From IMG/VR virus record IMGVR_UViG_2695420600_000004: a stretch of 26,045 bases of DNA; one strand, given 5' to 3'. Positions 1 through 3,000 of the stretch are shown here, one piece after another. How positions within the stretch are numbered: position 1 is the stretch's first letter; each line of letters opens with the position of its first letter. Position numbers: made by a program. This stretch comes from a virus (Duplodnaviria > Heunggongvirae > Uroviricota > Caudoviricetes).

Positions 1-3000
1 CCTCAAAAACACCATCATACACTAAATCAGTAAGTTGGCAGCATCACCAGCCTTCTTGAGGCTACCACCTGTTTTCAGGTGTCATTCAGACGTGATTTGC
101 CCCAGATTGGGAAAGCACGCTTTTTTCTCAGCTATCGTCCTCTTATTTTGCCGTTACATTTCTTTTTGCACTCTAATGATTAATTTACAATAATAATATC
201 GGTAATTATTGAGTAATAATAAATTGATTATTGCAAATGTAATTTAATTCCATCTTCGCGTTATATTCCAATCTTTAATCTCCGCATGGAACAAGTTGCA
301 TGCGTGACTATATTAAGACAACTTATAACCACCAAAACATTTGCTTTGCAAGCAAAAACAGTGACCATTGACTCTAAGAAAATTCCGATCTATTGTTAGG
401 GTCATCAAAGTTACTTAACAGTATTCCGAAATGAAAATACAAAGCAAGCTAATTGTCTTATTAAACATTATTATTGCATTTATATTATTTGAGCTTTTAG
501 CTCAAAAATTTGGTTTGAGTACATTATTTTAAAGCAAGATAAACAATATCGGGCACTCTAGTTTTTATAATTAACAATTAAACGTCCATAAAATGTTATT
601 TACTTTTCTTCGCTATTGTCATATCTTAATATAGTGGCTTACGCCACTCTACTTTCATCACATTTTGTACGTTTATGTACTCGCCATGAAGCTCTTTCAT
701 GGCGATTTTTTATTCTTAATCCAAGAACATACTCCCTACCTATAGCAAAATCACTTTTTTAACAAAAGAATAACGTATTTAGGTAATCATTACGAATTTA
801 CCCTATAGGTGCTACTGGCCATTCAATATCCGGTGCAGTTGATGTATCAACACGGTTCAGCAACACCCGATACTTTTTCCAGGCTTCCAGCAACAAGGTT
901 TCTTTCTCCGTTGCGATCTCCAGATCCACAGCATCCTGAAGCGGCGCTATATGCTCACTGGCTACCTGCATCAGGCTGTTTTTTGTTTCTTCCGCCTCCC
1001 GGATCCGGAACAGTTTTTCTGCTTCCGTATCCTTCACCCAGGCTGTGCCGTTCCACTTCTGAAACTCCCCTTCCGGGGATAACCAGGTGACATTTTCCGG
1101 TAATGAGCCGAGTTCAGAAATAAATAACGCGTCGCCGGAAGCCACGTCATAAACCGTTTTACCCCGATGATCTTCAACGAGATGCCACGATGTTTGCAGG
1201 CAGACCTGTATGAGGCGGAATATATGCGTCACCTTCACCAATAAATTCATTAGTTCCGGCCAGCAGGTTATAAATTTTTATGGTCCGTGCTTGTTCACTC
1301 ATTCTGAATGCCATTATGCGAGCCTCACAATATAGTTAAATGCGATGTTTTTGACGGTGTTTTCCGCGTTACCAGCAGCGTTAACGGTGATGGTGTGTCC
1401 ATGTGAACCAATCGCAACAGAGTGCGTATGAGCACCAATACCGACAGTATGCGCGTGTGCACCCGCAGATGCTGCTGTGCCGGACAGTGAGTGTGTATGG
1501 TTTCCTTCTGAAGATGATTTACCTACCCATTGGGAGGTGCCACTGGTTAATGAGCCACTGATACCAACCTGATTAGTCCCGCTAACTTGAGTACTCCCTG
1601 CCGGAAACATTCCAGTAGGTTGACTCCCGCTATTCGTTCTGGGCCCAGTCTGACTATGTTGGTGGGCCCCAGCTGAACTTGTAGAGCCGCTCAGACTGTG
1701 CGTATGCGCCCCGGTGTTATTCGTGGATTTAGTGCCGTAATCAAACGACGATGTGGTTTTCGTCCCCAAATCCGTACTGGATGCGCTGGCGCTGTGGGTG
1801 TGCGATTTAATGCCATCCTGTTCCTGAGACAATACGGCACGACCACTGGCGGGCTTGCCCTTAATCGTCCAGCCACGCATATCAGGGATCACGCCTGACG
1901 GATAAGCGGCTGCAAGTTTCGGGTAAGCAGATTTGTCAAAAGTCTGCCCCTGCATCAGGGCATAACCAGACGGAACGGTATCTGATGGCCACGGGATTGG
2001 TGCACCGACTGGATAAAACTCTGCAGGAGGATGAGCCGAGGTGTAAAGCTGCGCCCACGGCGACCAGTTTGCGTCGGTCGTATCCCGTCGTGAACGAATA
2101 AATGCCGGAGCATGAGCACCGCTTGTACCACTCCAGCCGATGAGTAACTCACCTTCGCCAACGGCTGTCATCCCTTTCAGGTGAATGATATTTCCATACG
2201 CTGTTGGATATCCGTTGTTATACACCTCGTATAACTCAAGACCTGCTGCCCCCTGCGTATTGTCTGTCAGCGCGGCTACCCGACCTTTTGAAGCCAGATT
2301 AACTGATGATACTGCTGTTCCACCTGACGGTAGCGCCCCGATCTCTGATGCCGTTGGCTTATTTCTGGAGTTATAGTCCCTTCGCCAGCCAGGTGAATAA
2401 TCTGTTCCGTGATTAATATAGGTAAACTGGGCGTTGGTTGTTCCGCCACCGCTGGATGTGGTCGGAGTGGTAATGCGGATCGTCATCGCTGACTTTATCC
2501 CCATTACTTCAATGACAGCTCCGGCGAGATGAATATTACCGCAGCCAGTATCAGTAATGATTTTATTATTGCCATAAGACCAGGAACCCTTGCACATCCA
2601 GTATGGATGGTTAAATGCTCCCTGAGAATCCAGCCACTCGATAAACTGTGCAGTCGTCCAGTTTCCTGTTGTTGTGCTTACTGACCCACCGAAGGCACGG
2701 CAGGCACCAATATTTTTCGTAAAGGTGTCTTTGCCAGGGATATCCGCACCGTTCTGATCTTTCTGCAGACGTTTCTCAGCATTGTCATTGGCTGCTTTTA
2801 CTGCCTTTGGCGTTGCCGCCAGCGTTTCAGACGTGCTGTTGGTCGCGCTGCTTAGCTGGATTATCCCTTTCTGTGCTGTCGTTGCATCCTGTGCGGTGTA
2901 TTTCCCGTTAGCCAGGTCATACGCGGCCTTAACGGCTTTTGGTGTTGCCGCCAGTGACTCGGAAGTGCTGTTAGTCGCACTACTGAGCTGTACTATCCCC

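Follow-up and report, generated by a model that had tools for sequence, protein, structure and literature searches.

A 65-bp deletion splits tfa, the side-tail-fibre chaperone gene, in a lambda-like prophage of Shigella sonnei

Is a tail fibre assembly gene that is spread over two reading frames a product of faulty sequence, a working gene of unusual design or a gene that has been lost? The question is raised by a 26,045-nucleotide stretch of viral DNA (IMG/VR record IMGVR_UViG_2695420600_000004), referred to here at its full length as the window. It represents the late-gene arm of a prophage resembling lambda, and its Nu1, A, W, B, C, D, E, FI, FII, Z, U, V, G and T proteins are 94-100% identical to those of lambda. 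The original prediction, made from the sequence alone, held that a Tfa N-terminus starts 11 bp after the stf stop and terminates at 1174-1176, that the rest of the protein lies in another frame as ORF 798..1250, and that the two are joined at about 1188-1194 by a deletion of roughly 65 bp. We consider it very probable that tfa is here a pseudogene, produced by a single recent 65-bp deletion in a lambda-like prophage of an S. sonnei sublineage that comprises 53G, Moseley and about 100 others. The features on which the analysis rests are collected in Table 1.

Table 1. Positions of the features at the host-recognition end of the prophage, numbered along the window.
Feature	Position	Strand	Remarks
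IS1 terminal 48 nt (terminal inverted-repeat end)	1..48		borders the prophage end
ORF with the 3' part of tfa	798..1250	-	150 aa; residues 21-150 are native Tfa 64-193
tfa 5' fragment	1174..1314	-	41 native codons (MAFRM...GLPAN), then IVASR out of frame, TGA at 1176-1174
tfa deletion junction	1190..1193	-	65 nt missing; minus strand GCAAACA/TCGTGG, plus strand cgaTGttt
stf, side tail fibre gene, Tfa client	1314..4403	-	open ORF; TAA stop at 1316-1314
lom, truncated	4496..4978	-	160 aa; 83 nt lost between a pair of CTGGCG direct repeats (junction about 4507/4508)
J, central tail fibre, damaged	5049..9136	-	stop at 8935-8933 (W68*), frameshift at about 7222-7320

We examined the layout of stf and tfa. 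The stf product has 1027 aa if translated from the ATG at 4397 or 1029 aa from the GTG at 4403. Two in-frame ATG codons open tfa. The first (1314-1312) overlaps the stf stop as TAATG and corresponds to the start annotated for lambda orf-194; the second (1302-1300, reading MSEQ) lies 11 nt past the stf stop, where the original prediction had begun the protein, and the end of this frame also proved to be where it had been placed. ORF calls and tblastn bore out the second frame as well: with lambda Tfa as the query, residues 1-41 were aligned at 1314-1192 in one frame (98% identity) and residues 62-192 at 1196-804 in another (89% identity). When the two parts are joined into a reconstructed Tfa, the protein shares 93% identity with lambda Tfa (orf-194) and 98% with a Tfa from an E. 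coli prophage. Like the Tfa genes of lambda and of E. coli lambdoid prophages (TfaQ, TfaR), the window gene sits directly downstream of stf with an overlapping stop and start and encodes a Caudo_TAP domain. Lambda-type Tfa is a single ORF of about 193 aa with the N-terminal region and Caudo_TAP together; the window has instead an ORF of 46 aa and one of 150 aa. The Caudo_TAP match (PF02413) is complete in the 150-aa ORF (residues 29-148, E = 2.3e-44, model positions 1-130 of 131), whose residues 1-20 are the conserved N-terminal region of Tfa read out of frame from an internal ATG. This product carries PF02413 without PF28596 (Caudo_TAP_N), whereas an intact sister protein described below carries both, and a Pfam search of the 46-aa peptide gave no match. 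Judged by homology and position the gene is a lambda-type tfa, but because its reading frame is not continuous the proper entry for it is a tfa pseudogene.

The break between the two frames is a clean one. When window 1330-780 (minus strand) was aligned as DNA with the tfa genes of lambda and E. coli SCU-111, a single gap of exactly 65 columns appeared, with a mean column identity of 92% outside it, and global alignment to three intact sister loci again gave a gap of exactly 65 nt. As sequences are compared directly here, chance plays no part. These alignments turn the approximate deletion of the original prediction into one of exactly 65 bp with its junction at 1190-1193. Compared with lambda and E. 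coli lambdoid Tfa, the window thus lacks residues 42-63 (22 residues) and its frame is broken; since 65 cannot be divided by 3, what follows the junction is shifted to the +1 frame. Four Tfa sequences (lambda, two from E. coli and the reconstruction) show no variation over the 22 lost residues, the last of which, position 63, reads Ala or Ser. The lesion therefore combines a premature stop at 1176-1174 with the loss of conserved residues, and full-length Tfa cannot be encoded by the deleted allele. In the ancestral sequence, read from sister locus L010, the flanks are GCAAACA/GTACC...GATGAGTCA/TCGTGG, and the end points have only the dinucleotide CA in common. No longer repeat was found flanking the tfa deletion. 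A repeat-mediated event was accordingly rejected for tfa, unlike for lom, whose deletion is flanked by a 6-nt repeat; the tfa deletion would have arisen by illegitimate recombination or replication slippage at the 2-nt CA microhomology. The k-mer CTGCCTGCAAACATCGTGGCATCTC marks the junction of the deleted allele, and GCAAACAGTACCGAT and GATGAGTCATCGTGG mark the intact allele.

A split of this kind could in principle stem from a sequencing or assembly artefact, the true gene being continuous. Window 1-5250 is 100% identical to S. sonnei 53G (at about 2.63 Mb in that genome), a strain that we take to belong to lineage II. Two independent draft contigs, both of which end at the IS1 border, match window 52-5314 at 100% identity. 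In the alignment the junction and the 65-nt gap were identical in 53G and three drafts. By exact-sequence look-up, the 46-aa peptide with its frame-shifted tail was found on 109 contigs and the 150-aa product on 104, named Shigella sonnei; these contigs include 53G (chromosome HE616528.1, 4,988,504 bp) and Moseley, and a 46-aa and a 42-aa product are both annotated in S. sonnei assemblies that again include these two strains. The lesion is thus reproduced in independent assemblies, and the continuous frame that might have been expected on resequencing, by which the original prediction proposed that it could be overturned, is found neither in 53G nor in the drafts. A clean loss of 65 nt at a microhomology is also unlike the usual read errors, and no 65-nt repeat is present that could have collapsed. 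The one point in favour of an artefact is that the J region of the window differs structurally from the copy in 53G, so that part of the window could be mis-assembled. We regard an artefact at tfa as having practically no chance of being the explanation. Since the same junction occurs in the finished 53G genome and in independent drafts, the 65-nt deletion of tfa is genuine and inherited, and no read or assembly error.

The J region deserves a description of its own. Two partial tandem duplications lie within 5506-7118, and the locus is about 590 nt longer than an intact J of 3498 nt. The window departs from 53G beyond about 5250, and in 53G and the drafts the J beside the same lom-stf-tfa module is an intact ORF of 1165 aa. 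A 547-aa J fragment of the window is identical to part of a split J (67, 547 and 513 aa) in a second prophage of 53G at about 2.08 Mb. Inter-prophage recombination or mis-assembly would each explain why the J of the window differs from that of 53G. The second 53G prophage, which lies outside the window, also has Tfa genes in opposite orientations (175 and 177 aa) together with fragments of gp37_C (positions 13998-20212 of our locus L014); the equivalent locus in another strain (L015) has a resolvase-family gene in addition, a layout that is that of an invertible tail-fibre segment.

We then consider how the deleted allele is distributed. A 46-mer across the junction had no megablast match in 5,426 complete E. 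coli genomes, which showed that E. coli is not polymorphic for the deletion and directed attention to Shigella. In a scan of GTDB species representatives an exact junction 36-mer gave 0 matches; S. sonnei probably has no representative there. Against the same 5,426 genomes and about 50,000 phage records, the full-length megablast matches to tfa were in two pieces among the matches listed, with 616 record bases for 551 query bases, that is, 65 extra. A 111-nt query centred on the junction behaved in the same way, the matches listed spanning 176 bases in the record and hence again 65 extra. Over its whole length the window reached only about 93% mean identity in its best match to a complete E. 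coli genome.

This distribution bears on whether the two frames might be joined in translation. They overlap at 1250-1174, and programmed +1 ribosomal frameshifting would connect them into a Tfa lacking 22 residues. The split form, however, occurs in one S. sonnei sublineage only, and homologous loci, thousands of them among the matches listed, are continuous; with the junction missing from the 5,426 E. coli genomes, the split architecture is not conserved. By eye, the overlap (1174-1250; ...GCA AAC AUC GUG GCA UCU CGU UGA) holds no slippery or prfB-like motif, and the split has an evident mutational origin. Frameshifting is in our judgement close to out of the question. Neither it nor internal initiation was retained as the main explanation, the two being rejected on grounds of distribution and ribosome-binding site.

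The mutational origin can be read from close relatives. Three assemblies with sister loci were retrieved by look-up of the truncated lom product, and all three (GCA_965230885.1, GCA_040188975.1 and GCA_000268225.1; loci L010, L011 and L013) carry an intact orthologue of tfa at the same locus. They hold the same prophage, with the 160-aa lom and its 83-nt deletion, stf (1027 aa in two of the three) and a flank of IS1 and integrase; what sets them apart is that they keep the 65 nt and with them a continuous tfa of 193 aa that encodes both PF28596 (Caudo_TAP_N) and PF02413 (Caudo_TAP). Across window 1-1400 the differences between the sister loci and the window amount to the 65 nt, a SNP in tfa (at 882) and three intergenic SNPs. 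The tfa SNP is synonymous, and the residues encoded outside the deletion are identical to those of the sister allele. The intact 193-aa allele (P0031) was found on at least 1000 contigs from S. sonnei and E. coli-Shigella assemblies. A Tfa rebuilt with the 22-residue insert of lambda and E. coli gave no match in the exact look-up; the true sister allele has Ser at residue 63 and not Ala as in the rebuilt protein. From these comparisons we infer that the tfa deletion is recent and restricted to an S. sonnei sublineage that includes 53G and Moseley. Apart from the deletion tfa has no further lesion, and stf is open with 1027 aa, so that the decay is very recent and not extensive within tfa. The lom deletion, which is defined relative to the lom genes of E. 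coli strain 104 and lambda, is probably older and nearly species-wide, because the 160-aa lom product occurs on 861 contigs (1,212 index blocks), S. sonnei Ss046 among them, against 104 blocks for the tfa deletion.

What the deletion would do to the protein is best seen against the structure of the family. Tfa proteins are modular, with an N-domain for fibre binding and a conserved helical domain at the C-terminus that drives trimerisation (PMC9608196). Residues 62-192 of lambda Tfa can be modelled onto Mu Tfa, and residues 1-61 form an additional region absent from the Mu protein (PMC7291167). In our comparison with Mu Tfa (gene U, PDB 5YVQ) the C-terminal helices are homologous, Tfa 127-191 corresponding to 113-174 of 5YVQ (E = 6e-9), and the sequence match is limited to these helices. 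Relative to Mu Tfa, the window deletion removes the end of the lambda-type N-terminal extension of about 61 residues.

With 150 aa and its own ATG, the second ORF could then be read as a functional allele that supplies a shortened, Mu-type Tfa for Stf, possibly together with the 46-aa peptide. Several observations agree with such a product: the Caudo_TAP match is complete, the residues that are kept (64-193) are almost precisely the region of lambda Tfa mapped onto Mu Tfa by HHpred (62-192; PMC7291167), stf is still open and the allele persists in about 100 assemblies. Translation of the ORF would, however, have to begin at the ATG at 1250-1248, the only upstream ATG in its frame, which is uncoupled from stf and pairs weakly with the anti-Shine-Dalgarno sequence (-3.5 kcal/mol, as against -5.6 for the native tfa start; the starts of stf, lom and J have values of -6 to -7 kcal/mol). 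The first 20 residues of the product would be frame-shifted nonsense. The N-terminal region that is lost is invariant in lambda-type Tfa and has a Pfam family of its own (PF28596), which implies a functional role; a young clone can keep an allele without selection, and the neighbouring genes are visibly decaying. Overall, a functional short Tfa appears improbable, and a true Tfa start at 1248-1250, named by the original prediction as an alternative, found no positive support. Were the 150-aa ORF nonetheless an active minimal chaperone, the 61-residue N-terminal extension of lambda-type Tfa would be dispensable for the folding of Stf.

Loss of the gene, the reading that we prefer, would proceed as follows. 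Ribosomes beginning at the native start, which is coupled to the stf stop, would make a 46-aa peptide. The deletion takes away the end of the lambda-type N-terminal region with its conserved residues 42-63, and residues 1-41 are left as a separate short peptide, uncoupled from the Caudo_TAP domain. The Mu-like core (residues 64-193) is stranded in the +1 frame without a strong ribosome-binding site. To judge from the sequence, carriers of the deleted allele would have no working Tfa chaperone from this locus, and the still-open stf should not give correctly assembled side fibres.

Laboratory lambda (PaPa) offers a parallel, its side-tail-fibre module being likewise inactivated by a frame-disrupting mutation with the partner gene left open (PMC7291167). 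In the lambda record stf is split into orf-401 and orf-314 and tfa is intact. The window differs from lambda PaPa in that the chaperone gene and not the fibre gene is broken, and in that the lesion is a 65-nt deletion and not a single-base frameshift.

The flanks of the module offered further observations. In 53G, ORFs for IS1 InsA and InsB lie downstream of tfa, and matches that have no IS1 here start at position 49. The same IS1 position is found in about 280 E. coli genomes, and in E. coli strain 104 it adjoins the lambda attachment region on its bioA-ybhB side. An AT-rich spacer of 750 nt, for which no gene is annotated in E. coli strain 104, separates IS1 from the tfa stop; at 681-712 on the plus strand it contains a perfect hairpin of 10 bp (TCGCCATGAA ... 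TTCATGGCGA) with a run of T behind it, which is terminator-like on that strand. Past nu1 and cos, at the other end of the window (25137-25838, plus strand), are genes of the YlcI/YnfO and DUF1398 families that also occur in many E. coli prophage regions. In one draft contig that matches window 53-3647 (GCA_013886555.1, AAUUMQ010000009.1), the deleted tfa, together with the 3' end of stf, is joined to a Mu-like com/mom and baseplate region; the break, which lies within the Ala/Ser-rich repeats of stf, would be either a rearrangement or an assembly join through the repeats.

In several GenBank records the tfa fragments carry separate annotations, as 'phage tail protein' and 'tail fiber assembly protein'; a single tfa pseudogene made up of 1314..1174 and 1250..798 should take the place of these two genes. 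As a marker the 65-nt deletion is clean: it apparently distinguishes the 53G/Moseley-type sublineage from strains in which the allele is intact, and strains could be typed by it. Shigella is known for the rapid accumulation of pseudogenes, which make up at least 5% of the CDS in every Shigella reference genome, and broken tail-fibre genes are commonplace in cryptic lambdoid prophages. The tfa lesion is one of several at the host-recognition end of this prophage and fits the neutral decay of a resident prophage. The split of tfa is ordinary prophage decay, known biology without a new mechanism, and the tfa deletion adds one dated case of microhomology-mediated small deletion in the decay of Shigella prophages, beside the 83-nt deletion in lom.
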